This document shows, one piece after another, positions 3,840 through 53,233 of a stretch of DNA of 56,914 bases (the first letter of the stretch is position 1; each line of letters opens with the position of its first letter). The stretch covers positions 1 through 56,914 of the forward strand of contig CAZMIZ010000006.1 in NCBI GenBank assembly GCA_964566925.1, in the 5' to 3' direction. The notes below the pieces were generated by a model. That model searched no databases. It saw only the letters and a list, made by a program, of their open reading frames with translations, and was not told the DNA's origin. Source of the stretch: an uncultured Gammaproteobacteria bacterium. Its GTDB lineage: Bacteria > Patescibacteriota > Microgenomatia > PFEM01 > DATLAM01. Both the position numbers and the translations under genes were made by a program.

Positions 3840-4734
3840 GTTTCATCCTCTCTTCTAAAACCTGATCTTTCTTGAATTCAATTAATTGAAGTGCCTTTAG
3901 ATCGACTCCCTGAAGCGCGGCCCGAGGGATCATTCCGTAGATTTCCGAACCTAAAACTTCAACGCCTCTTTTTTGGGCTTCCTTTTTAATTTTAGCAAAA
4001 ACAACATCCATGTTCGTTTTCTCAAAATCACAAAGATTCATGGAAACTTGAACAAACCCTTGATCTTTAATTGCAAAACCCATCGCCTTGACTGCCGGGA
4101 AGCCGCCATCTTTTTCCCGAATCAGTTTAGCAATTTCTTTAGCTACCTGAACATCCTGGGTATCCAGGTTAACGTTGTAAGCAATCAGAAATTTGCGGGC
4201 GCCGATGACCATCGCTCCAGCGGCGGGGTGCATTTTGCTCGGCCCAAAATCAGGCTTCCGATCTGGATTAGTGACAATTTCTTTTTTTAACCCTTCATAC
4301 TCGCCTTTTCTAACGTTGGCTAAGTTGGCTCGTTCTGGCCGGGTCGCCGCCGCTTCATAAAGATAAACCGGAACCTTTAGCTCCTCGCCAACCTTCTTCC
4401 CTAGGCGCTTGGCTAAAGCCACACACTCCTCCATTGAAACATTGGCCACCGGAATAAAGGGAACCACGTCAGTGGCCCCAATGCGGGGATGTTCACCATG
4501 ATGTTTTTCCATGTCAATTAAGGCCGTTGCTTTTTTGATCATTCCCCAAACCGCCTGGAGAACCGCTTCCGGTTCACCCACTAAAGTTACTAAAGAGCGG
4601 TGATGATCTTTATCCCATTCAACATCAAGGACTTTAACTTTCTCCCGCCCCCGAGCGACATCGGCAATGGCTTTAATAACCTTTTGTTTTCTCCCTTCGG
4701 AGAAATTTGGTACGCATTCAACCAGTTTATCCAT
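3832..4734 (-). CDS. ftcD: Glutamate formiminotransferase / 5-formyl-THF cyclo-ligase substitute
   Basis: LVECVPNFSEGR, DHHRS, HHGEHPRIGATDVVPFIP, GARKFLIAYNVNL. Confidence 0.95.
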   Translation of the reverse strand: MDKLVECVPNFSEGRKQKVIKAIADVARGREKVKVLDVEWDKDHHRSLVTLVGEPEAVLQAVWGMIKKATALIDMEKHHGEHPRIGATDVVPFIPVANVSMEECVALAKRLGKKVGEELKVPVYLYEAAATRPERANLANVRKGEYEGLKKEIVTNPDRKPDFGPSKMHPAAGAMVIGARKFLIAYNVNLDTQDVQVAKEIAKLIREKDGGFPAVKAMGFAIKDQGFVQVSMNLCDFEKTNMDVVFAKIKKEAQKRGVEVLGSEIYGMIPRAALQGVDLKALQLIEFKKDQVLEERMKHD

Positions 4735-4761
4735 TTGGGAAATATTATAACAGAAAGCTTT

Positions 4762-5328
4762 TTACCCCCGATAGACCTGATGACATTTGGCACAAACCGG
4801 AAAATATTCAGCTTCTTTGGTGGAGGCAATTTTGCCGGTTTTGCCGCTTACCCGTTCTGTATGGCTGGCTTTTTTTCCGCACTTCACGCAAATAGCAAAA
4901 AGTTCAATTTTTTCATCCGCCTTTTTAAAAAGATCCAGCGTCACTCCAAACGGCTTTTTGGTGTAGTCATATAAAAGGCCGGTGGCGTAGACATCAATTC
5001 CTTTAGCTAAAAGTTCGGCCACTAGCTTCTTGGCCTTGTCTTTGGGGAAAAAATTGATATTGTCAATAATCACTTTCATCTCGTCAGTAAAAATATATTT
5101 TAAAATCCGCTCCGGCTGATCAGGGTCAATAAAAATCACCGGGAGGGAACGTTCATCATGAGAGTTAGTGTGGCCCATACCGCCGCTACCGGCTACCTCT
5201 GCTTTAAAACAGAGAACGGGGTAACCCAGTCTGGTTAAAACCCGAAAGAGGGTCAAAGCCTTGTTGGTTTTACCAGCAAACATGGGGCCGGCGATAACCG
5301 TCAATCTACCTTTTTTCTTTCTGCCCAT
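4762..5328 (-). CDS. tdk: Thymidine kinase (TK1-type), with DE->DN change in the catalytic motif
   Basis: IAGPMFAGKT P-loop; CVKC...CAKC zinc lasso; IIDNINFF where IDEGQFF is expected. Confidence 0.85.
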   Translation of the reverse strand: MGRKKKGRLTVIAGPMFAGKTNKALTLFRVLTRLGYPVLCFKAEVAGSGGMGHTNSHDERSLPVIFIDPDQPERILKYIFTDEMKVIIDNINFFPKDKAKKLVAELLAKGIDVYATGLLYDYTKKPFGVTLDLFKKADEKIELFAICVKCGKKASHTERVSGKTGKIASTKEAEYFPVCAKCHQVYRG

Positions 5329-46487: not shown

Positions 46488-46919
46488 ATGAAAAAACTGT
46501 TGATCATTGGCCTTCCCCTCTTATTACTTCTTTCTCCTTTTAATTGGGTTTTGGCGGCCAAAAAGAGGCCACCCAGAAGTAGTGGGGAAGGTGCTCCAGT
46601 CCGGGCTTACTACACTCGTGGAGTCCGGGCTTCAATTCGCTTTCGGCCTGATCGACTTGGCTTGCTAGTTAATTTCTCTGGCTTTAGTAATATTGCTTCG
46701 GTCACCTATTCACTCACTTATACTGCCAATGGTATTCCCCAGGGTGTCTCCGGCACGGTTACCGCGGCCACGGCTGGCGAGCAAAGAGAAATTTTGTTCG
46801 GTACCTGCTCAGGTGGAATCTGCCGCTACCATACCAATATCACCAACGCCCGCCTGATTATTGATTCTAAGCTTTATTCGGGCACAATCATCCGCAAACC
46901 CTACCGGATTAAAGTTTGA
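46488..46919 (+). CDS. Secreted basic hypothetical protein
   Basis: Signal peptide; SVTYSLTY...GTCSGGICRYH. Confidence 0.65.
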   Translation: MKKLLIIGLPLLLLLSPFNWVLAAKKRPPRSSGEGAPVRAYYTRGVRASIRFRPDRLGLLVNFSGFSNIASVTYSLTYTANGIPQGVSGTVTAATAGEQREILFGTCSGGICRYHTNITNARLIIDSKLYSGTIIRKPYRIKV

Positions 46920-46934
46920 TTAAATGCTTGTAAC

Positions 46935-46963
46935 TAAAGACCTAAGACTCAATACTTGCGACT
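46935..46963 (+). repeat. Degenerate heptamer array upstream of the second four-helix gene
   Basis: TAAAGACC TAAGACT CAATACT TGCGACT. Confidence 0.6.
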
Positions 46964-46975
46964 AGATAGTGAAAG

Positions 46976-47338
46976 ATGGGGTTTCGGTTTCAGAAGTTTC
47001 CAATTTATAAAGAATTACGTTTATTTGTAAAGGAAATCTATCGCCTTTCCAGGACTTTTCCAAAATCTGAACAATTCGAATTGGGCGCCCAATTAAGGAG
47101 ATCGGCCTCATCAATTCTTCTTAATATTGCTGAAGGCTCTGCCAAAAAGTCTGATGCAGACTTTAATCGCTTTGTTCTCATTGCCATAGGTTCTCTGACA
47201 GAAATAGCTGCCATTCTGGACATTTCTCTAGATCAAAAATACATCACCATTAAGATTCACGGAGAATATATTAAGAGGTGTCAAAGCTTTGCCCGCCGCC
47301 TTTACGGCTTTAGCAGAAAATTGACAAAAAACGGCTAA
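46976..47338 (+). CDS. Four-helix-bundle protein (23S rRNA intervening-sequence protein / Avd-like)
   Basis: FQKFPIYK, FPKSEQFELGAQLRRSASSILLNIAEGS, F..IAIGSLTE. Confidence 0.93.
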   Translation: MGFRFQKFPIYKELRLFVKEIYRLSRTFPKSEQFELGAQLRRSASSILLNIAEGSAKKSDADFNRFVLIAIGSLTEIAAILDISLDQKYITIKIHGEYIKRCQSFARRLYGFSRKLTKNG

Positions 47339-47366
47339 AATTATAAAATTACCCTATATTCCCATT

Positions 47367-47396
47367 CGTATTTTGTATTAAGTATTAGGTATTAAG
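47367..47396 (+). repeat. Heptamer array downstream of the second four-helix gene, inverted relative to 46935-46963
   Basis: CGTATTT TGTATTA AGTATTA GGTATTA. Confidence 0.8.
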
Positions 47397-47403
47397 CAAT
47401 ATT

Positions 47404-47577
47404 ATGGCAAAGAAGGGTCCAAGGCAAATTTTAGCTTTAGTTTGTACGGCTTGCAAAAGCCAAAATTATGTTACGGAAAGAAATAAGGTTAATACGCCTG
47501 AGAAGCTGGTTTTGAAAAAATTCTGTCGAAGATGTAGGCGCGTAACCGAGCATAAAGAAACAAGCAAGCTTAAATAA
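47404..47577 (+). CDS. rpmG: 50S ribosomal protein L33, zinc-ribbon type (57 aa; absent from ORF track)
   Basis: Manual translation: MAKKGPRQILALVCTACKSQNYVTERNKVNTPEKLVLKKFCRRCRRVTEHKETSKLK*. Confidence 0.95.
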   Translation: MAKKGPRQILALVCTACKSQNYVTERNKVNTPEKLVLKKFCRRCRRVTEHKETSKLK

Positions 47578-47663
47578 GCCTATATCGGAGATCCTGCTAA
47601 ATCGCTCCTTGAGCCGTGTACGAATAGTACTGAAAAGGCGAAAGGTAAGATTATGTAGGGCAA
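47578..47663 (+). other. Putative 5' fragment (P3-P4-P5abc-like) of a group I intron
   Basis: GCCTATATCGGAGA start; TCCTGC/GTAGGG and TCGCT/GGCGA helices, GTAC-GAATA-GTAC hairpin, TGAAAA bulge, ends GGGCAA; no P7/P8 seen. Confidence 0.45.
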
Positions 47664-47712
47664 AAGGTGTCGCAAAGTAACCGAACACAAGGAAACGAGT
47701 AAATTAAAGTGA
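47662..47712 (+). pseudogene. Duplicate of the rpmG 3' end (KRCRKVTEHKETSKLK*)
   Basis: 14 of 16 residues identical to the L33 C-terminus; in-frame TAG at 47656-47658 precedes it. Confidence 0.88.
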
Positions 47713-47715
47713 TTT

Positions 47716-47788
47716 AGGCGAGTAGCTCAGCTGGTAGAGCACCGGTCTCCAAAACCGGCGGTCGGGGGTTCGATTCCCTCCTCGCCTG
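47716..47788 (+). tRNA. tRNA-Trp(CCA)
   Basis: AGGCGAG/CTCGCCT, CCGGT-CTCCAAA-ACCGG, G73. Confidence 0.96.
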
Positions 47789-47906
47789 CAAAACACCCTA
47801 TAATATTGAATCCTCCCCTCTCTTAAGATATAATTCTCCTGTTTAAATCAAGCTTTTCTGAAAAGACCCTTGCTTTTCTGGGAAACATCATTTTATTATA
47901 GTCTTA

Positions 47907-49259
47907 ATGCAGCTTTCTGTGCCTTTAAAGCTGATCTTAGCCTTGGTTCTGGGTGCAGTGATCGGCCTGGAAAGAGAATCTCATGAGAAGAAAAAACAGT
48001 CGCGGAAAGAAGCTCTTGGCACCATAGGCGTCAGAACTTTCTCCTTGATCACCGCTCTGGGGGCCATTGCCGGCCTCTTAAGAGAAGATTACTTCAGTCT
48101 TTTTCTGTTAATCAACGCCACTTTCATGGCTCTGTTAATCGCCTACTATACTCTCCAGAGCTTGCTGACTAAAGACCAAGGGATCACCACCGAAATTGCC
48201 ATCATCTTCAGTTATTTAATTGGATTGCTTATCATCTTGGAGATCTTTCCGATCCAACTGGTTTTAGCAATCACCATTGTTCTCGTCCTGATTCTAGCCC
48301 GAAAAGGAGAAATTAAGGCGCTGGTGGCCGGGATTAAGAGAAGCGAAATCAATGCCTTTATTAGCTACGCGATTATCGCTTTGGTTATTCTCCCTTTCCT
48401 GCCCAACCAATCATTCTTCCTGGCGGACATTCCCAACCTAGAGATGATTTTAAGTCCCTACGGGATCGATCTTGGTAAACTATCCCAAATCGAAATCATC
48501 AATCCCTTCTGGCTCTGGTTGATTGTCGCTTTAATTACTGGGGTGGAGATGCTTGGCTACCTCCTGGAGCGAACCGTTGGCCAAAAAAAAGGGTGGCTCT
48601 TAACCAGTATTGCCGGCGGCTTTATTTCCTCCACCGCCACTACCCAATCCTTAGCCCAACAGAGCCAAAAAGGCAAAATGGTCAACCTCTTGGTGGCTGC
48701 TGCCCTTTTTGCTAATCTAGCTTCCTTTTTCCAGGTCTTTATCTTTATTGCTCCAATTAACAGCCTTTTCTTAGTGAAAGTCACCCCCTTAATTTTGGCT
48801 ATTGTTCTCAGCGCTCTTTTAATGGGCTTGTTTTTCTTAAAGATTAAAGGAAGTTCAGATGAAGAAGATCTGCCGGCCACCAAAGAACGCTTAAAAAGAG
48901 AACAAATCTTTGCCCTTGGCCCGGCTTTAAAGTTCGCTTCTATCTTCTTGATAATTAGGATCGCTACCAAAATCTCTTTAGCTCTTTTCGGCAGCGGCGG
49001 ATTTTTAGCCACTGCGGTCATCGCCTCCGTCCCCGGAATTGATGCCGTGACCATTAACTTAGCGGAAATGGCTGGAAAAACAATTAATTTTCAAACTGGG
49101 GTTTTGGCTCTAATTCTGGTTAATGCGGCTAATCTTTTAAGTAAGGTCATCTACAGCTTTGTTCAAGGGAAACGGGAGTTTGCCCTTAAATTTGCCGCCA
49201 GCGTGGCGGTAATGATCCTCGCCAGCCTCTTAGGCCTCCTCCCCTTCTATAGCCTCTAA
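47907..49259 (+). CDS. MgtC/SapB + DUF4010 membrane protein
   Basis: LGAVIGLERE, GVRTFSL, GITTE, GGFISSTATT. Confidence 0.88.
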   Translation: MQLSVPLKLILALVLGAVIGLERESHEKKKQSRKEALGTIGVRTFSLITALGAIAGLLREDYFSLFLLINATFMALLIAYYTLQSLLTKDQGITTEIAIIFSYLIGLLIILEIFPIQLVLAITIVLVLILARKGEIKALVAGIKRSEINAFISYAIIALVILPFLPNQSFFLADIPNLEMILSPYGIDLGKLSQIEIINPFWLWLIVALITGVEMLGYLLERTVGQKKGWLLTSIAGGFISSTATTQSLAQQSQKGKMVNLLVAAALFANLASFFQVFIFIAPINSLFLVKVTPLILAIVLSALLMGLFFLKIKGSSDEEDLPATKERLKREQIFALGPALKFASIFLIIRIATKISLALFGSGGFLATAVIASVPGIDAVTINLAEMAGKTINFQTGVLALILVNAANLLSKVIYSFVQGKREFALKFAASVAVMILASLLGLLPFYSL

Positions 49260-50128
49260 GGCTGCGCCCACTCGGACCATAAGTTTCTTACCTCTTCAAA
49301 CTGGATTTTTCTTGCTTCCCTTTCGCTTGTCTCATAATTTTGGAAAACTGAATCAGGCATCCCCCAGAAAGCGCTGGAAATAAGGACCTTTCTGCCAGTT
49401 AAATACTCAAGGACTGGCGGGTAAATCCTTGCGTGTTCCATTAAAGCCGACACCTGATTTGATAAGACATCGGCTGTTAGCCACCGGAGTCGGAGAGATA
49501 AATCGACCTGGACTTCATCCTCGGCTTGCCTGCTAATTTGCCAGGCTTCTAAACCGGTCTCTAGGTAACCCAATCTCTCAATTGCATTAAAGGCTCGGCC
49601 CAATTTTGAATCAGGCATGGAAACCACTTTAAACGCTCGCTTTAATAGTTTCCGAAGAATTGGACTCTCGGGAAAAAGTTCTCTAATTATTTCTTGTTGA
49701 GAGATTAATTCTAACCTTTCATTCTCTGGGGTTTTCCTCCCGTAAGGGGCATCACCAGCGACCGCTTCGCCCCAATCATGCTCCAGACCAGCCAAACAAA
49801 GAATCACTTTGTCTTCAGGCGAAAACCGGGCTTCTTCTGGAACATTGCCTACCCAAAGCGGAAAAGGGTCAGCACAAGCAGAGATAAACCTCTGGACTTG
49901 TACAAGCGTTAGTTTTAAATGTTCAAGCCCATTAATATCCGGCCCAAGCAAATTCTGCCATTCATCATCCTCAACCCCGTCTGGTTTGTACCGACTGTAT
50001 CGGCAGATTCCAGCTAGCGACTGACCGTAGGTCGAAGCCGCAAGTTGGTCGTGGATCTCTTCAAAGGAAAAGGGCCTCTCTTCTTCGATCACCACCCCGG
50101 TGGGACGATCAATTTCTTGCATAGTCAA
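49256..50128 (-). CDS. HD-domain protein (YfbR/5'-deoxynucleotidase-like motif)
   Basis: LEHL...EHDWGEAVAGDAPY. Confidence 0.55.
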   Translation of the reverse strand: MTMQEIDRPTGVVIEEERPFSFEEIHDQLAASTYGQSLAGICRYSRYKPDGVEDDEWQNLLGPDINGLEHLKLTLVQVQRFISACADPFPLWVGNVPEEARFSPEDKVILCLAGLEHDWGEAVAGDAPYGRKTPENERLELISQQEIIRELFPESPILRKLLKRAFKVVSMPDSKLGRAFNAIERLGYLETGLEAWQISRQAEDEVQVDLSLRLRWLTADVLSNQVSALMEHARIYPPVLEYLTGRKVLISSAFWGMPDSVFQNYETSEREARKIQFEEVRNLWSEWAQP

Positions 50129-50188
50129 TCATTATATTATAAGTATCCGTTTGGACTTAAACAGGCAGGAGATAAAAACTGATCGGCT

Positions 50189-50467
50189 TTAAACCAAGAC
50201 CAAAAAGGAAAAGGCCAAGAGGATCAGTAAGGCGCCAAAGCCGATACTAATAGCCGTTGGTTCAAAAAACCCCGTGGCGGGGATGGTGGGCGTCGCCGTG
50301 GCCGTAGCGGTGGAGGTTGGGGTTACGGTGGCCGTAGGTGTATTGGTGGGAGTCGACGTGGTGGTCGGCGTCGGGGTAGAAGTTACCGCCTGAACTAAAT
50401 TTACTTGAACAAACAAACAAAAGAAAGAAAGAAAAAGGAAAATTAATAAAACTTTAAAGGGCTTCAT
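50189..50467 (-). CDS. Small Thr/Pro-rich exported protein with IPATG + hydrophobic tail
   Basis: Signal peptide, (TPT/TAT)n, LPxTG-like motif. Confidence 0.65.
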   Translation of the reverse strand: MKPFKVLLIFLFLSFFCLFVQVNLVQAVTSTPTPTTTSTPTNTPTATVTPTSTATATATPTIPATGFFEPTAISIGFGALLILLAFSFLVLV

Positions 50468-50549
50468 CCTTATTTGAGTTTAAAGCATTTTCAAGAACTT
50501 TGTCAACCCTTTGACAAATTTGAGCCTTTATTATATAATCGCCCCATCA

Positions 50550-51446
50550 ATGAAGCGGGTTAAGTTATTAGTCTTTCTCCTGCCCGCCCTCATTCTTCTT
50601 TTCTGCCCTAGAAGTGTTCTCGCGGATTCAAAAACCTTTGATACGGTCAAAGACACCTACGCCAACCAGGCCTATCCAGACCAAAATAGAGGAACTCTAG
50701 GGAGCGTTATCGTTAGTAATAAATACACCACCCGCCTCGGCTATCTTCAGTTTGAAGACCTTGACTTGCCTGAAGGGGCAATTTTTGATCAGGCCGTTAT
50801 CAACTTCTCCCTCTCCGAGGTCCATTACAGTGATCGGGCTAAAGTCAATATTGGCCCAATCAGTGGGAATTGGGAAGAAACCACCGTTACTTGGAACAAT
50901 AAGCCTACCATTAACCAGGCTGAGGCGATTGAGGCGGAATTCTCTTTAACCGCCACAGGCTGGAGACAGGTTGATATTAGCCCGGTAGTCCGACGCTGGA
51001 TCGAGGGGACAACTGAAAATAGGGGTATCTTTATTTATCCTTACGGCTTTCTGTACGGCGGCACCGAAACGGAATACGCCTTCACTCTTAGATCAAAAGA
51101 ATCGGGAACGGAGAGAGCCAATTTAGTCGTCGAATATCATTTCGAGGCCGCGCCCACCTCTTCACCTACACCTGAACCCACGGAGACTCTCGCTCCGGAA
51201 GCCAGTCCGGTTGAGGAAGAAGAAGTCCTTGAAGAAGAAACTCCTACTCCGACGCCTGAAGAAGAAAAAGAGGGCACCGTTTCCGGTCTTTCCACTGGTC
51301 AAATGGCGATTGGCGGCTTAATCCTTCTCTCCTTAGCTGGAGTCGGGATTGCTCTCCTGGTTTACGCCCTGCGCAAACCGAAAAAGAAAGCGGAAGAGAA
51401 GAAAAAAGAGGAAGAACCTCAGAAAGAAACCCCAGAAGAGGCTTAA
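50550..51446 (+). CDS. DNRLRE-domain surface protein with C-terminal TM (start moved to ATG 50550)
   Basis: KDTYANQAYPDQN, YLQF, VTWNNKP, VDISPVVRRW, FTLRSKE. Confidence 0.75.
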   Translation: MKRVKLLVFLLPALILLFCPRSVLADSKTFDTVKDTYANQAYPDQNRGTLGSVIVSNKYTTRLGYLQFEDLDLPEGAIFDQAVINFSLSEVHYSDRAKVNIGPISGNWEETTVTWNNKPTINQAEAIEAEFSLTATGWRQVDISPVVRRWIEGTTENRGIFIYPYGFLYGGTETEYAFTLRSKESGTERANLVVEYHFEAAPTSSPTPEPTETLAPEASPVEEEEVLEEETPTPTPEEEKEGTVSGLSTGQMAIGGLILLSLAGVGIALLVYALRKPKKKAEEKKKEEEPQKETPEEA

Positions 51447-52093
51447 CTAGATCTCTTGTTTCTCCAACTCTCCACGAATCTCTTCCGATGAAACCTAGTC
51501 AAACCACATCTTAATATGGCTTTTCGATGCAGCTTCGTTCCGTAGCCCTTATTCTTCCCCCATCCATAGAGCTTATATTTTGATCTTCTCGCCAAACTGC
51601 GCATGATTTTATCCCGATGAACTTTGGCCAAAATCGAGGCGGCGGCGATTGAAAAAGACCGCTGATCACCGTGTCTAATCCCTTTCTGTCTTGCCTTGCC
51701 TACTCCATGAAGATAGGGGATATAATAATAGTCAATTAAAACAAAATTGGGTAAAAAACCTTTTTTAGCTAAATCACGGATCGTTTTTCTCATCGCTTTC
51801 TCGGTTGCCTTGCCAATCCCGATCCGATTAATAACCCTGACTCCCACTTCAGTCACATCCCAAGTTAAAGCTTTTTTCTTAATCTGGATGGTTAATTGCT
51901 CCCGAAACCTGGGTTTCAAGAGTTTGGAATCATTAATTCCGTCAATCTGAACTATTTCTCTAGGAAAAATGACGGCGCCGACAACCACGGGACCGGCGAA
52001 AGCCCCCCGGCCAACTTCATCAATGCCAGCAATTAATTTAAACCCCTTCTGCCAAAGTTGTTTTTCAAAAGAAAAATTAGGCTGGTTCATCAA
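51443..52093 (-). CDS. rnhB: Ribonuclease HII
   Basis: AGIDEVGRGAFAGPV, INDSK, GDQRSFSIAAASILAKV, NKGYGT. Confidence 0.96.
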   Translation of the reverse strand: MMNQPNFSFEKQLWQKGFKLIAGIDEVGRGAFAGPVVVGAVIFPREIVQIDGINDSKLLKPRFREQLTIQIKKKALTWDVTEVGVRVINRIGIGKATEKAMRKTIRDLAKKGFLPNFVLIDYYYIPYLHGVGKARQKGIRHGDQRSFSIAAASILAKVHRDKIMRSLARRSKYKLYGWGKNKGYGTKLHRKAILRCGLTRFHRKRFVESWRNKRSS

Positions 52094-52965
52094 TCAAGTT
52101 TGAGGCTGCGAAGATATTTTTTGAATTCTTTGCCAAAATCCGGCCGGTCAAGAGCAAACTCAACCATTGCTTCCATGTAGTGCAAAGGGTCGCCAGTCGT
52201 GTGCCAACGACCCTCAATTTTAGCCACGACTGCTTTATGTTTCTTGGCGTAACGAGAAATCGCGTCAGCCAACCACAACTCTCTCCCTTTGCCCAACTTT
52301 CTTTCCGCCAAAATCTCAATCACCTTTTCGTTAAGAATAAACCGGCCAAATTGAGCCAAATTTGAGGGTGCTTCAGAGGGGTCAGGCTTTTCAATGATAT
52401 CGGCAATCCGGGTTTGGTTTCCCTTTTTAAATTTAATGATTCCATAACGGTTAACCTCCTCTTTAGGAACAGCCTGAGTGGCCACCACGACGGCACCAGC
52501 ATTTTCCCGCCAAACCGAAATCAATTGTTTGGTGGCCGGCACCTTACTTTTAACCAAATCGTCTCCAAACATATAAACAAAGCTTTCTCCTTTTTCGATT
52601 AAGTCAGCGGCCACCAAAAGGGGGGCACCGTTACCATAGGGTAAGTCTTTGGTCTGGCGCAAGTAAATAAAATTAGCCAGCTGGGGAATTTTTTTAACTT
52701 TTTTAAGGAGGGCTTTTTTGTTATTAGCCATCAACTGATGTTCAATCTCAAAAGCGGAATCAAAGTGATCTTCAACTGCATGAAGCCCGGCTCGGGTAAC
52801 AATAATAATATCCGTAATTCCGGAATCAACCGCCTCTTCCACCAAATACTGAACAATCGGCTTATCAATAATCGGCAACATCTCTTTTGGTTGGACTTTG
52901 GTGGCCGGCAAAAAACGGGTTCCGTAACCCGCTGCCGCAATGATCGCTTTTTTAATTTTGGGCAT
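52090..52965 (-). CDS. galU: UTP-glucose-1-phosphate uridylyltransferase (start moved to ATG 52965)
   Basis: KAIIAAAGYGTRFLPATK..PKEMLPIIDKP, FGDD, IIEKP. Confidence 0.93.
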   Translation of the reverse strand: MPKIKKAIIAAAGYGTRFLPATKVQPKEMLPIIDKPIVQYLVEEAVDSGITDIIIVTRAGLHAVEDHFDSAFEIEHQLMANNKKALLKKVKKIPQLANFIYLRQTKDLPYGNGAPLLVAADLIEKGESFVYMFGDDLVKSKVPATKQLISVWRENAGAVVVATQAVPKEEVNRYGIIKFKKGNQTRIADIIEKPDPSEAPSNLAQFGRFILNEKVIEILAERKLGKGRELWLADAISRYAKKHKAVVAKIEGRWHTTGDPLHYMEAMVEFALDRPDFGKEFKKYLRSLKLD

Positions 52966-53026
52966 GGCTAAATTTCTTCGTTGAACAATTGTAGCATATG
53001 TGGTAAAATTTGACCAGTAAAACAAA

Positions 53027-53233
53027 ATGGCAAAGCCTGTTTTCGGAAGGCAAAAACCTTTCGTCTTTTTAAAAGAAGTCAAAAACGAATTAGGTAAGGT
53101 CATCTGGCCCACCCGAGCCCAAGCAATCAAGCTGACGGCAATCGTGGTTGGGGTTTCGGTGATCGTCGGTATCTTTATTGGCACTTTAGATTTTCTTTTT
53201 ACAAAGCTAATGGGTATCATCCTGGGAAGATAA
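53027..53233 (+). CDS. secE: Preprotein translocase subunit SecE
   Basis: FLKEVKNELGKVIWPTR + TM; before nusG. Confidence 0.95.
   Translation: MAKPVFGRQKPFVFLKEVKNELGKVIWPTRAQAIKLTAIVVGVSVIVGIFIGTLDFLFTKLMGIILGR

Follow-up and report, generated by a model that had tools for sequence, protein, structure and literature searches.

The rpmG locus and its two tails

The window, i.e. the whole 56,914-nucleotide stretch of DNA analysed here, carries an rpmG gene whose 3' end (the tail) occurs a second time in front of a tRNA-Trp gene. The locus contains the following features.

47404-47577, forward strand: rpmG (ribosomal protein L33), translated gene of 57 aa (ORF list; PF00471 precomputed on homologues)
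47527-47577, forward strand: tail copy 1 (RRCRRVTEHKETSKLK plus TAA), the expressed 3' end; putative incoming segment from ~47525
47531-47586, forward strand: hairpin 1 (MFE fold), enclosing tail copy 1 and its stop codon
47578-47659, forward strand: non-coding spacer between the tails, 81-82 nt, without an ORF of substance
47593-47659, forward strand: hairpin 2, a conserved structured element whose 3' foot abuts tail copy 2
47660-47712, forward strand: tail copy 2 ((C)KRCRKVTEHKETSKLK plus TGA), untranslated, in the ancestral position by tRNA-Trp
47699-47704, forward strand: TAAATT, a possible -10-like hexamer within copy 2 (codons S-K-L), 16 nt before tRNA-Trp
47716-47789, forward strand: tRNA-Trp (cca), the downstream partner at the insertion hot spot (ARAGORN; Rfam tRNA 71.1 bits)

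The L33 of the window shares 60-93% identity with L33 at 160 Microgenomates loci. Its gene ends with the tail FCRRCRRVTEHKETSKLK and the stop TAA at 47575-47577, and the second tail, read as GKRCRKVTEHKETSKLK over 47659-47712 with the stop TGA at 47710-47712, ends 3 nt upstream of tRNA-Trp. When 47527-47577 was compared codon by codon with 47662-47712, 18 of the 51 nt differed and 33 were identical (~63-65%), with 4/3/11 differences at codon positions 1/2/3. Thirteen of the 17 codons are affected, 15 encode the same residue or stop, and both residue changes are R to K. The sequence-only reading had described a recoded second copy of the rpmG 3' end with protein-level selection on both copies, and both statements held up: a simulated copy 2 carrying 18 random substitutions had two or fewer amino-acid changes in 0 of 200,000 trials (minimum 4). 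Moreover, when all six frames surrounding rpmG were scanned with BLOSUM, both in the window and at the first 80 related loci, the second tail scored 72 against a 99th percentile of per-frame maxima of 25, and the one other comparable locus (69) itself has a genuine second copy. The duplication is thus confirmed as real, and both copies bear the signature of selection on the protein.

The two copies share a reading frame, with in-frame stops at 47575 (TAA) and 47656 (TAG). Stop-codon read-through or bypass as a way to join them was considered and rejected, as the frame of the second tail is random across the 15 extra copies in relatives (frame 0, three; frame 1, seven; frame 2, five). The copies are homologous precisely as far as their stop codons and have unrelated flanks, and the longest identical run is GTAACCGA (8 nt).

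Had the gene end been duplicated locally in tandem, through slippage during replication or through template switching, and then diverged, direct repeats such as these, which lie 135 nt apart, would result, and template switching can also yield an inverted repeat like hairpin 1 beside the stop. However, an untranslated copy would then gain mostly non-synonymous changes, whereas the 18 differences here include only two conservative replacements, which chance does not reach, and the abrupt end of homology at the stop codons also speaks against it, as does a related locus (L044) whose upstream tail is no recent copy of the resident one when compared with the empty-site locus L145. Since the copies are as far apart as tails from different genera and nearly all their differences are synonymous, plain tandem duplication, the fallback of the sequence-only reading, is rejected as very unlikely. 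Concatenation of two strain variants of the rpmG end during assembly is equally hard to credit. The window is a single metagenome-type contig, and its L33 ORF has no gene catalogue record although a neighbouring gene has one; but copies ~65% identical with unique structured sequence between them are not what such an artefact predicts, and comparable architectures occur in independent assemblies, including an identical pair (L147/L148) from two samples.

Structure of the insert and the intron question

The 135-nt insert (47525-47659) folds into two hairpins (-40.3 kcal/mol, z = -3.9). In hairpin 1, GATGTAGGC (47531-47539, codons R-C-R-R) pairs with GCCTATATC (47578-47586) right after the stop. 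A 9-bp helix as strong as this is found at 3 of 148 loci without duplications, and a similar pairing of the tail with post-stop sequence is present in L104 and in units from Collierbacteria. The enrichment of such pairing at duplicated loci is weak (p = 0.025), and hairpin 1 was dropped as a hallmark of these loci.

Hairpin 2 consists of an outer stem (CCTGC/GTAGG), the stems AATC/GATT, CCTT/AAGG, GCC/GGC and GTAC/GTAC, and a tandem GA.GA internal loop. Two other genomes have homologues in the vicinity of rpmG, namely L158 (432-507, minus strand) and L123 (1440-1510); neither has a tail duplication. The covariance model of this family (R1) gives scores of 87, 91 and 75 bits, every paired cell of the alignment holds a standard pair, and 4 of the 15 pairs show compensatory double changes, so that the spacer hairpin is a conserved structure. 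The family has no Rfam match in the window, L158 or L123.

Searches for further copies with BLAST, nhmmer and covariance models, with filters off, returned one copy of the hairpin element in the 56.9-kb window, where no second copy of the spacer was found either, and a multi-copy MITE/REP-like element was rejected on this ground. Judging by the sequence itself, a 22-bit match at 50167-50235 seems to overlap what may be a coding region on the minus strand. Direct repeats of AAATNANCCTATA (47346, 47572 and 47790) and the resemblance of copy 1 to the tRNA junction (76%) were judged compatible with chance.

The sequence-only reading had taken the insert for a group I intron that once brought a replacement 3' exon and whose P7/P8 core was subsequently deleted. 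In candidate-phyla-radiation bacteria, rRNA and tRNA genes often contain group I introns with endonuclease genes, and the insert is indeed strongly structured, has tandem GA pairs and an A-rich strand, begins after a U and ends in G. Of the fold that had been likened to P4-P5-P5abc, the two stable hairpins stand, but the group I assignment does not. When 46900-48000 was scanned against Rfam 15, even a cutoff of E<=10 gave only the tRNA and noise, with no group I or group II match; at gathering thresholds the whole window gave four tRNAs and an L10 leader and nothing else; and seven related loci with tail or tRNA-Trp duplications were likewise without a match to group I or group II models. No group I catalytic core (P3-P9, with the guanosine site in P7) was detected by covariance model. 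Known group I introns measure roughly 200 nt or more, and the candidate intron, at 135 nt, is too short. None of 169 related rpmG loci has an intron-bearing allele or a longer intron-like insert at this position, and hairpin 2 occurs free-standing, with no surrounding intron, in L158 (on the opposite strand) and L123. In addition, a self-splicing intron needs no replacement exon. We therefore regard a degenerate group I intron as highly improbable, and the part of that reading which survives is that the insert brought a replacement end with which L33 is still made.

The proposed splice from U47524 to G47660 does restore the frame, as T47524 together with G47660 and C47661 makes TGC (F-C-K-R-C) and the joint of TTCT with GCAAAAGG reads FCKRCRK. 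This is uninformative, because any partial duplication of colinear homologues rejoins in frame. T47524 and G47659 are present, but the boundary is arbitrary within the shared TG/GC and no guide sequence or P1/P10 can be defined. A group II intron was also rejected: GAGCCGU resembles domain V, but its partner strand forms G.A/A.G pairs with it in place of the domain V helix. A splice-like helix between exon and spacer (ACCGAG/CTCGGT) in L022 was discarded as well, since it is not conserved in L031 or L029.

Empty sites and affinities of the two tails

The rpmG end of L001 (L33 93% identical) is FCKRCRKVTEHKETSKLK, which equals the copy 2 peptide and lies 4 nt before tRNA-Trp, and the same peptide ends rpmG in L167 (L33 89%), 29 nt before tRNA-Trp. 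The gap from rpmG to tRNA-Trp is 2-20 nt at many loci, or 2-29 nt when L001 and L167 are included. Because these empty sites put the rpmG end beside tRNA-Trp, copy 2 occupies the ancestral position.

At the nucleotide level, copy 2 and the L001 tail are 81% identical, and both encode the same peptide, while copy 1 is 87% identical to the native L081 tail and 72% to that of L001; overall, copy 2 is closer to L001 and L167 and copy 1 to L081. Copy 1 is of the tail type that is native in L081. The divergence between the two copies is at the level seen between tails of different genera. The N-terminal 40 residues of L33 differ from L001 at 2 positions and from L081 at 4, and the window tRNA-Trp is 78% identical to that of L081 and 65% to that of L001. 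Since tRNA-Trp points to L081 and copy 2 to L001, the picture is a mosaic in which the resident tail is ambiguous. Codon usage does not discriminate between the tails (log-likelihood -19.8 versus -18.2). An identical end product would arise if the spacer and copy 2 had been inserted behind a native copy 1, or if the entire 5' part had been replaced.

A second locus also bears on polarity. L044 has an empty-site relative, L145 (rpmG 137/150 identical), and its downstream tail matches the L145 tail at 22 of 24 positions, its upstream tail at 20 of 24. For the window, the closest L33 overall is 93% identical (L001, L081). A search of the protein catalogue with L33 gave a best match of 89%, the added loci being empty sites or lacking tRNA-Trp, and the best match to the downstream MgtC/DUF4010 gene was 82% identical and not syntenic. 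The genomes found hold no filled/empty polymorphism for the window cassette, because the closest has ~82% nucleotide identity.

Recurrence at the rpmG/tRNA-Trp junction

Of 161 Microgenomates loci, 13 have extra rpmG tails, and these fall into at least five unit types or contexts. In L019 a Gp49/HTH_3 toxin-antitoxin pair lies between the tail copies, whereas units of ~50-70 nt without any ORF are found in L104 and L113, in L047 and in eight Collierbacteria loci, which include the two duplicate assemblies L147/L148. Reusable unit types form arrays of varying order, namely tail1-A-tail2-B-tail1 in L022 and tail2-B-tail1-A-tail2 in L029, and the junctions of extra-tail units sit at hairpin feet. 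The identical stretch between tails is 15 nt in L019, where the old copy reaches further upstream with a frameshift, and at most 5 nt in Collierbacteria. In Collierbacteria the divergence of type B units is about that of the host genes, which fits old inheritance as well as mobility.

Some of the displaced tails have decayed (L113, L021, L030 and L037), for example by S to P and stop to Y in L113 and K to I in L037. By contrast, the downstream tails of five Collierbacteria arrays show ~10 synonymous changes versus 1 non-synonymous change in a hand count from the sequences, a count biased towards synonymous changes because detection needs tail-like copies.

The same gap also contains protein-coding genes. 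GIY-YIG genes (PF01541) lie between rpmG and tRNA-Trp in relatives, outside duplicated tails, and those of L081, L150 and L031 are bordered at one end by the complete tRNA and at the opposite end by a diverged 5' fragment of tRNA-Trp together with a hairpin, a layout that mirrors the rpmG architecture. A family of 217-aa HTH ORFs adjoins tRNA-Trp at 11 loci, again outside duplicated tails; in this family the N-terminal HTH alone is recognised, and its C-terminal domain gave no PDB or NCBIfam match. By eye, these proteins may contain a LAGLIDADG-like motif.

Proposed origin of the arrangement

We consider it probable that the locus records a "bring-your-own-C-terminus" insertion where rpmG adjoins tRNA-Trp. 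Short DNA from a different Microgenomates lineage would have recombined into rpmG at codon 41, and the incoming piece, now 135 nt (~47525-47659), would comprise the last 16 codons and the stop followed by the 82-nt two-hairpin spacer. Translation would enter the incoming tail and stop at 47575-47577, and it is for this reason that a normal 57-aa L33 could still be made. The resident tail, displaced downstream, would now be untranslated; that it is still intact beside tRNA-Trp would reflect either a recent event or the presence, within copy 2, of the tRNA-Trp leader or -10 region. The synonymous "recoding" would then be the ordinary divergence of orthologous tails, each selected in its own lineage, and not adaptation in place. 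That copy 1 and the spacer are the incomer, and that a nuclease drove the event, is what we infer. The junction is a hot spot that homing-endonuclease-like genes and other cargo enter, often partly duplicating the flanking gene, and double-strand-break repair or homing-type recombination was therefore probably responsible. The present ORF-less insert may be a degenerate remnant or a non-autonomous miniature cassette.

A rival course of events is a one-off recombination scar made by no dedicated element, with the old tail left as junk. The rpmG of another Microgenomates lineage with its downstream hairpin, perhaps together with the upstream PF05635 gene, would have replaced the resident region through one homologous crossover and one illegitimate join that fell inside the old rpmG. 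In keeping with this, Pfam scans of 27 window ORFs over 36.3-56.3 kb gave no nuclease, integrase, resolvase or transposase, so that no mobility gene was seen in or near the insert, and the window type of cassette is seen once. Immediately before rpmG the window has an inserted PF05635 gene that L001, L081 and L167 lack at this place; colinear homologues automatically yield a clean in-frame joint; and the upstream extension and frameshift of the old copy in L019 are what an arbitrary junction predicts. A scar does not account, however, for like architectures at 13 of 161 loci, for junctions at hairpin feet and reusable unit types in the differing array orders of L022 and L029, or for the endonuclease-type genes that occupy this gap and are accompanied by partial target duplications, and the N-terminal 40 residues, slightly nearer to L001 than to L081, go against wholesale L081-like replacement. 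We hold this explanation to be unlikely on balance.

[quoted passage not shown] Copy 2 has no damaging change, its TAAATT lies at -16, and TAnWWT hexamers pile up at -23 to -14 before tRNA-Trp (75 unique loci), from which we infer a possible promoter role for copy 2. The covarying hairpin stems and the predominantly synonymous changes of the Collierbacteria downstream tails point the same way. But a promoter would constrain ~6 nt and not 51, a consensus promoter scan calls none at copy 2, and decayed relics exist at four other loci, which makes retention for function distinctly improbable as the explanation.

Beyond the insertion footprint, we raise more tentatively, as a doubtful option, that ORF-less micro-cassettes of ~50-135 nt, a previously undescribed class, may target Microgenomates rpmG tails. 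Each would consist of a synonymously diverged tail, a segment pairing with the first codons of that tail, and a covarying second hairpin whose foot abuts the displaced tail. Such cassettes would insert into each other's tails and so produce A-B and B-A arrays, and their spread would be of a homing type or guided by hairpins, possibly with GIY-YIG or HTH proteins from the same gap helping in trans. Alternatively, the silent tails would be coding-selected because cassettes come and go frequently and with precision. In this scheme the window insert would belong to the class and have a new conserved hairpin motif at its core.

Comparison with known systems

Phage T4 seg and mob genes encode free-standing homing endonucleases that spread by "intronless homing", in which break repair co-converts the flanks. 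They resemble the present case in that endonuclease genes sit between conserved genes, and we know of no T4 case in which the end of the target gene is duplicated. Rickettsia palindromic elements are miniature palindromic insertions in coding genes, and they are likewise small, hairpin-forming and ORF-less and tolerated inside essential genes. However, they are present in multiple copies, undergo in-frame translation and bring no replacement for a gene end, whereas the window element is single-copy within 57 kb. Group I introns with homing-endonuclease genes share with this insert the character of selfish insertions in conserved genes whose function must survive, and they are structured RNAs. 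The window insert differs in having neither a catalytic core nor a model match, and we found no evidence of its excision as RNA; here the duplicate tail solves the problem at the level of DNA and protein, not by splicing.

The closest analogues are the mORF "gene hybrids" of fungal mitochondria and the elements that integrate at rpmG 3' ends. In the former, a foreign C-terminus is followed by an endonuclease ORF and the native C-terminus (PMC3630166), as in Allomyces macrogynus atp6, Glomus atp6, atp9, cox2 and nad3, Rhizopus atp9 and Mortierella cox2 (PMC3630166 and work cited there). The order of gene body, foreign C-terminal segment, insert and displaced native C-terminus is the same. Low nucleotide but near-identical protein identity is also shared: the duplicated ends of Glomus atp6 have 63.5% nucleotide and 91-100% amino-acid identity (PMC3630166), and those of the window ~65% and 88%. 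The upstream end is the expressed one in the fungal hybrids, and copy 1 is contiguous with rpmG. That the native end is nearer to the relatives' ends is true of L044 with L145 and weakly so of the window. The differences are that the fungal insert contains a LAGLIDADG or GIY-YIG ORF shown to drive mobility, while the 82-nt window spacer is ORF-less; that the host is a bacterium and the gene one for a ribosomal protein; and that the endonuclease-type genes of the relatives lie in the same gap but not between duplicated tails.

Integrative elements (ICEs and IMEs) integrate site-specifically at the 3' ends of housekeeping genes, including rpmG in streptococci (PMC4701971). The gene end is the same, and there too a replacement 3' end keeps the gene intact and the original is displaced to the far side. 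These elements are kilobases long, with a tyrosine integrase and att repeats sharing an identical core, whereas the window insert is 135 nt, has no integrase within ~10 kb and has a longest shared run of 8 nt, and the short Collierbacteria units are without a common core.

Implications

Selfish DNA that enters an essential gene must not abolish its function. In the textbook cases, introns and inteins, the product is mended once transcription or translation has taken place. A further way out is to bring along a spare for the gene end that is pushed aside, and this third solution has been documented mainly in fungal mitochondria and large integrative elements. The window and its relatives indicate that the spare-end solution recurs in a ribosomal-protein gene of ultra-small candidate-phyla-radiation bacteria and is mirrored in tRNA-Trp, and some of these inserts are ~50-135 nt long and encode nothing. 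Annotation pipelines can miss or miscall such genes, as illustrated by the absence of the window L33 from the gene catalogue. If the micro-cassettes are mobile, they would represent a new minimal form of homing element and a source of cryptic allele replacement in phylogenetic marker genes; if they are immobile, they would still be useful markers of past endonuclease attack.

A complete, recoded second rpmG tail

The window carries a complete rpmG gene (ribosomal protein L33) whose tail is repeated shortly before tRNA-Trp. The features are as follows.

47404-47577, forward strand: complete rpmG, 57 aa, ending in FCRRCRRVTEHKETSKLK-TAA (its tail, 47527-47577, is copy 1)
47578-47659, forward strand: spacer between the tails, 81-82 nt
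47593-47659: spacer hairpin, stems CCTGC/GTAGG, AATC/GATT, CCTT/AAGG, GCC/GGC and GTAC/GTAC
47659-47712, forward strand: copy 2, repeating the final 16 codons and the stop, (G)KRCRKVTEHKETSKLK-TGA
47716-47789, forward strand: tRNA-Trp(cca), beginning three bases after copy 2

The tail duplication is real and stands on firm statistics. Of the 51 aligned bases, 18 are different between the copies, with 4, 3 and 11 of these falling at codon positions 1, 2 and 3; 13 of 17 codons are affected, yet only two residues are replaced, both R to K. When 18 random substitutions were put on copy 2 in 200,000 simulation runs, none of the simulated tails had two or fewer amino-acid changes, the lowest number seen being four. 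When the window and the first 80 related loci were scanned in six frames with BLOSUM scoring, copy 2 reached 72 against a 99th percentile of per-frame maxima of 25, and only L019, a related locus with a genuine second tail, was comparable (69). These results bear out the sequence-only reading that the tail was duplicated in synonymously recoded form and that both copies were under protein-level selection; each was clearly moulded during service as a functional L33 tail.

The window L33 ORF (47404-47577) is absent from a large gene catalogue that holds the neighbouring MgtC gene of the same contig, and was apparently missed or miscalled by the gene caller. AAATNANCCTATA occurs three times (47346-47358, 47572-47584 and 47790-47802; spacing 226 and 218 nt), bracketing rpmG and the spacer-tail-tRNA block, and 47531-47551 in copy 1 matches the stop/tRNA junction (47711-47731) at 76% over 21 nt; both are probably due to chance.

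Comparison with related loci

We collected 160 loci by L33 searches, nearly all labelled Microgenomates/Patescibacteria or mislabelled bins thereof, and nine further loci through a protein catalogue, six via the downstream MgtC/DUF4010 gene and three via L33. The nearest L33 proteins (L001 and L081) are 93% identical, with a nucleotide identity of about 82%, and no closer relatives were found in the collections searched. The rpmG of L001 ends in FCKRCRKVTEHKETSKLK and a stop, exactly the copy 2 peptide, with tRNA-Trp 4 nt further on; L167 has the copy 2 peptide too, 29 nt ahead of the tRNA; and rpmG-to-tRNA gaps of 2-20 nt are common among the loci. Therefore, copy 2 occupies the normal position of the rpmG tail. 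Copy 1 is 87% identical to the native L081 tail, with the RRCRRV peptide in both, and copy 2 is 81% identical to the L001 tail, with an identity between the two copies of only about 63-65%, as is usual for tails of different genera.

The tRNA-Trp genes of close relatives are of two very different D-arm types, 62-80% identical to that of the window (compared at 47716-47789 in the window, 2752-2823 in L001 and 655-727 in L081). These types do not track L33 similarity, which suggests that the tRNA-Trp gene is itself frequently exchanged.

An intron origin is unsupported

The insert had been read as a group I intron-like fragment with a replacement 3' exon, later truncated. We found no support for an intron: no group I, group II or ribozyme model matched 46900-48000 in Rfam at a permissive E<=10, where only tRNA and noise appeared, and at gathering thresholds the whole window gave four tRNAs and the L10 leader, nothing else. 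At 135 nt, the candidate intron (47525-47659) falls short of the length that a group I core needs. It folds into two adjacent hairpins (-40.3 kcal/mol, z = -3.9). Joining T47524 to G47660 does restore FCKRC in frame, but this carries no weight for an intron, because any two homologous segments that are colinear allow such a join at matching positions. Copy 2 is in the same reading frame as rpmG; elsewhere, among the loci that carry extra tails, the downstream tail falls in a random frame (frames 0, 1 and 2 in 3, 7 and 5 cases), so read-through or bypass is no common logic of the duplicated loci. The broader proposal, that the insert brought along a replacement end for the gene, is supported.

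Extra tails in relatives

Extra rpmG tails were present in 13 of 161 loci. In L019 the tails lie 730 nt apart and enclose a minus-strand Gp49/HTH_3 toxin-antitoxin pair; L104 and L113 have a short unit in common, the downstream tail of L113 having decayed (S to P, stop to Y); and L047 carries a different duplicated-tail unit. Eight Collierbacteria loci (L147 and L148 being duplicate assemblies) contain one or two units of 53-62 nt each. A unit comprises the final 7 codons and the stop, then a segment complementary to the first codons of its own tail (GGTGTC/GACACC, GGAAGT/ACTTCC or AAGAGGT/ACCTCTT), and then a hairpin whose conserved loop includes UACU and whose foot adjoins the following tail. 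At least four compensatory versions of the hairpin stem were seen on inspecting the aligned units. The unit types occur in both orders (tail1-A-tail2-B-tail1 in L022, tail2-B-tail1-A-tail2 in L029); conservation of the type A units exceeds that of the genes hosting them (89-94% vs 78-82%), and type B units diverge about as much as host genes. For L044, which has two tails, an empty-site relative (L145; rpmG 137/150 identical) matches the downstream tail at 22/24 and the upstream tail at 20/24, suggesting that it was the upstream tail and spacer that came in.

The spacer hairpin

The spacer hairpin contains a tandem GA.GA internal loop and the conserved strands AUCGCUC and UAAGAU. It has homologues in L158 (432-507, on the opposite strand, between tRNA and rpmG start) and L123 (1440-1510, 340 nt downstream of rpmG), neither with a tail duplication beside it. 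Our covariance model scored the three elements at 87, 91 and 75 bits, with no further convincing match in about 0.93 Mb, and no Rfam family matched the hairpin. All paired cells in the alignment are standard pairs, both-side changes occur in 4 of 15 pairs, and the G.U pairs and GA motif fix the strand. Given this covariation, the conserved pairs and the homologues, the hairpin is a real structured element linked to rpmG. Just upstream of it, GATGTAGGC in copy 1 pairs with GCCTATATC directly after the stop, forming a helix matched in strength in only 3 of 148 control loci and resembling the tail-to-post-stop pairing of the Collierbacteria units.

An insertion hot spot

The distance from rpmG stop to tRNA-Trp varies from 2 to about 2,900 nt across loci, and this junction is an insertion hot spot. 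The gap cargo includes the following.

Small GIY-YIG genes (PF01541)
A family of 217-240 aa proteins with an HTH at the N-terminus, in 11 loci, whose ORFs invariably run up to the tRNA
Probable dCMP deaminase genes, from conserved motifs seen by eye
TrpR-like genes and others

The HTH family is carried by L087, L105, L124, L029, L147, L026, L041, L043, L074 and L142, with a relic in L027, and by eye L111 has a C-terminal peptide like the family's. Its ORFs end 0-10 nt ahead of tRNA-Trp and encode TATAAT in their last codons. The C-terminal domain is unrecognised; a putative LAGLIDADG-like motif (YWxEG.K ... NSDP) is visible by eye, with no database match. Trp-repressor-family (PF01371) ORFs lie beside tRNA-Trp in L039, L060, L068 and L153.

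On the tRNA side, one order of parts is common to three loci: first a diverged 5' tRNA-Trp fragment of 20-42 nt that extends to the D-loop or the anticodon loop, then a GC-rich hairpin, then a GIY-YIG ORF and last a complete tRNA-Trp.

L081: fragment 163-200, complete tRNA-Trp 655-727
L150: fragment 4328-4369, complete tRNA-Trp 4659-4731
L031: fragments 4470-4489 and 4737-4756, complete tRNA-Trp 5051-5122

This arrangement mirrors the duplication of the rpmG tail, and here partial duplication is physically associated with endonuclease-type genes. The fragment-hairpin-GIY-YIG unit is itself tandemly repeated in L031, and L058 retains only a C-terminal relic of a GIY-YIG-type gap ORF. In L003 the 5' end of rpmG (MAKKGPRQI) is duplicated at 2182-2208, with two synonymous differences from the complete gene (2596-2769). 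Thus, partial duplication of the interrupted conserved gene is general for insertions here. The L003 insert, roughly 390 nt, encodes small hydrophobic peptides.

A second hot spot seems to lie 5' of rpmG. A PF05635 '23S rRNA intervening-sequence protein' gene lies directly upstream in the window (46976-47338, forward strand), and such genes, only 34-53% identical in amino acids, one frameshifted and one a fragment, precede rpmG in five distant loci (L023 2380-2724, L035 242-592, L060 2656-2955, L059 2543-2886, L131 2422-2541). In L001, L081 and L167 a 143-aa secreted-protein gene adjoins rpmG, with no PF05635 gene between.

About 5.4 kb of unrelated genes (47907-53220: MgtC/DUF4010, a 290-aa ORF, a CBM96 protein, RNase HII and a nucleotidyl transferase) separate tRNA-Trp from nusG (53235), L11, L1 and L10; the closest MgtC homologues do not adjoin rpmG. 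The Pfam L1 model covers only residues 146-260 of the 269-aa L1 ORF (54319-55128), a sign of either a wrongly placed start or a long, unexplained N-terminus.

Origin and meaning of the duplicated tail

The window structure is best read as a C-terminal replacement insertion, in which a diverged rpmG tail with its structured spacer would have recombined into rpmG and displaced the other tail. Such replacement explains the purely synonymous divergence, since the tails are orthologous and come from two lineages, and accounts for homology stopping exactly at the stop codons, for copy 2 in the ancestral position and for recurrence in relatives. Copy 1 plus spacer, rather than spacer plus copy 2, may have been the incomer, on mixed polarity evidence: the N-terminus and copy 2 are like L001, and copy 1 and the tRNA like L081.

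Among described systems, two come closest: the mobile-ORF gene hybrids known from fungal mitochondria, in which a foreign C-terminus is followed by an endonuclease ORF and then by the native C-terminus (63.5% nucleotide and 91-100% amino-acid identity; PMC3630166), and the streptococcal elements that integrate site-specifically into the rpmG 3' end (PMC4701971). Unlike these, the window has only 82 nt between tails, with neither the endonuclease of the former nor the integrase of the latter; Pfam scans of 27 window ORFs between 36.3 and 56.3 kb found no gene of either kind. The insert may be what is left of a degenerate endonuclease element. Alternatively, it may be a non-autonomous micro-cassette or the scar of a single illegitimate recombination.

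Across 75 unique loci, the 45 nt preceding tRNA-Trp show a cluster of -10-like hexamers (TAnWWT) 14-23 nt before the tRNA. Where rpmG abuts the tRNA, these hexamers lie within the codons for S-K-L-K, and the L33 tail may thus also serve as a promoter for tRNA-Trp. Copy 2 holds a -10-like TAAATT at 47699-47704, a position typical of tRNA-Trp promoters, to which it may owe its persistence. The duplicated tail is of moderate interest in itself, and would be of higher interest if ORF-less cassettes prove mobile.
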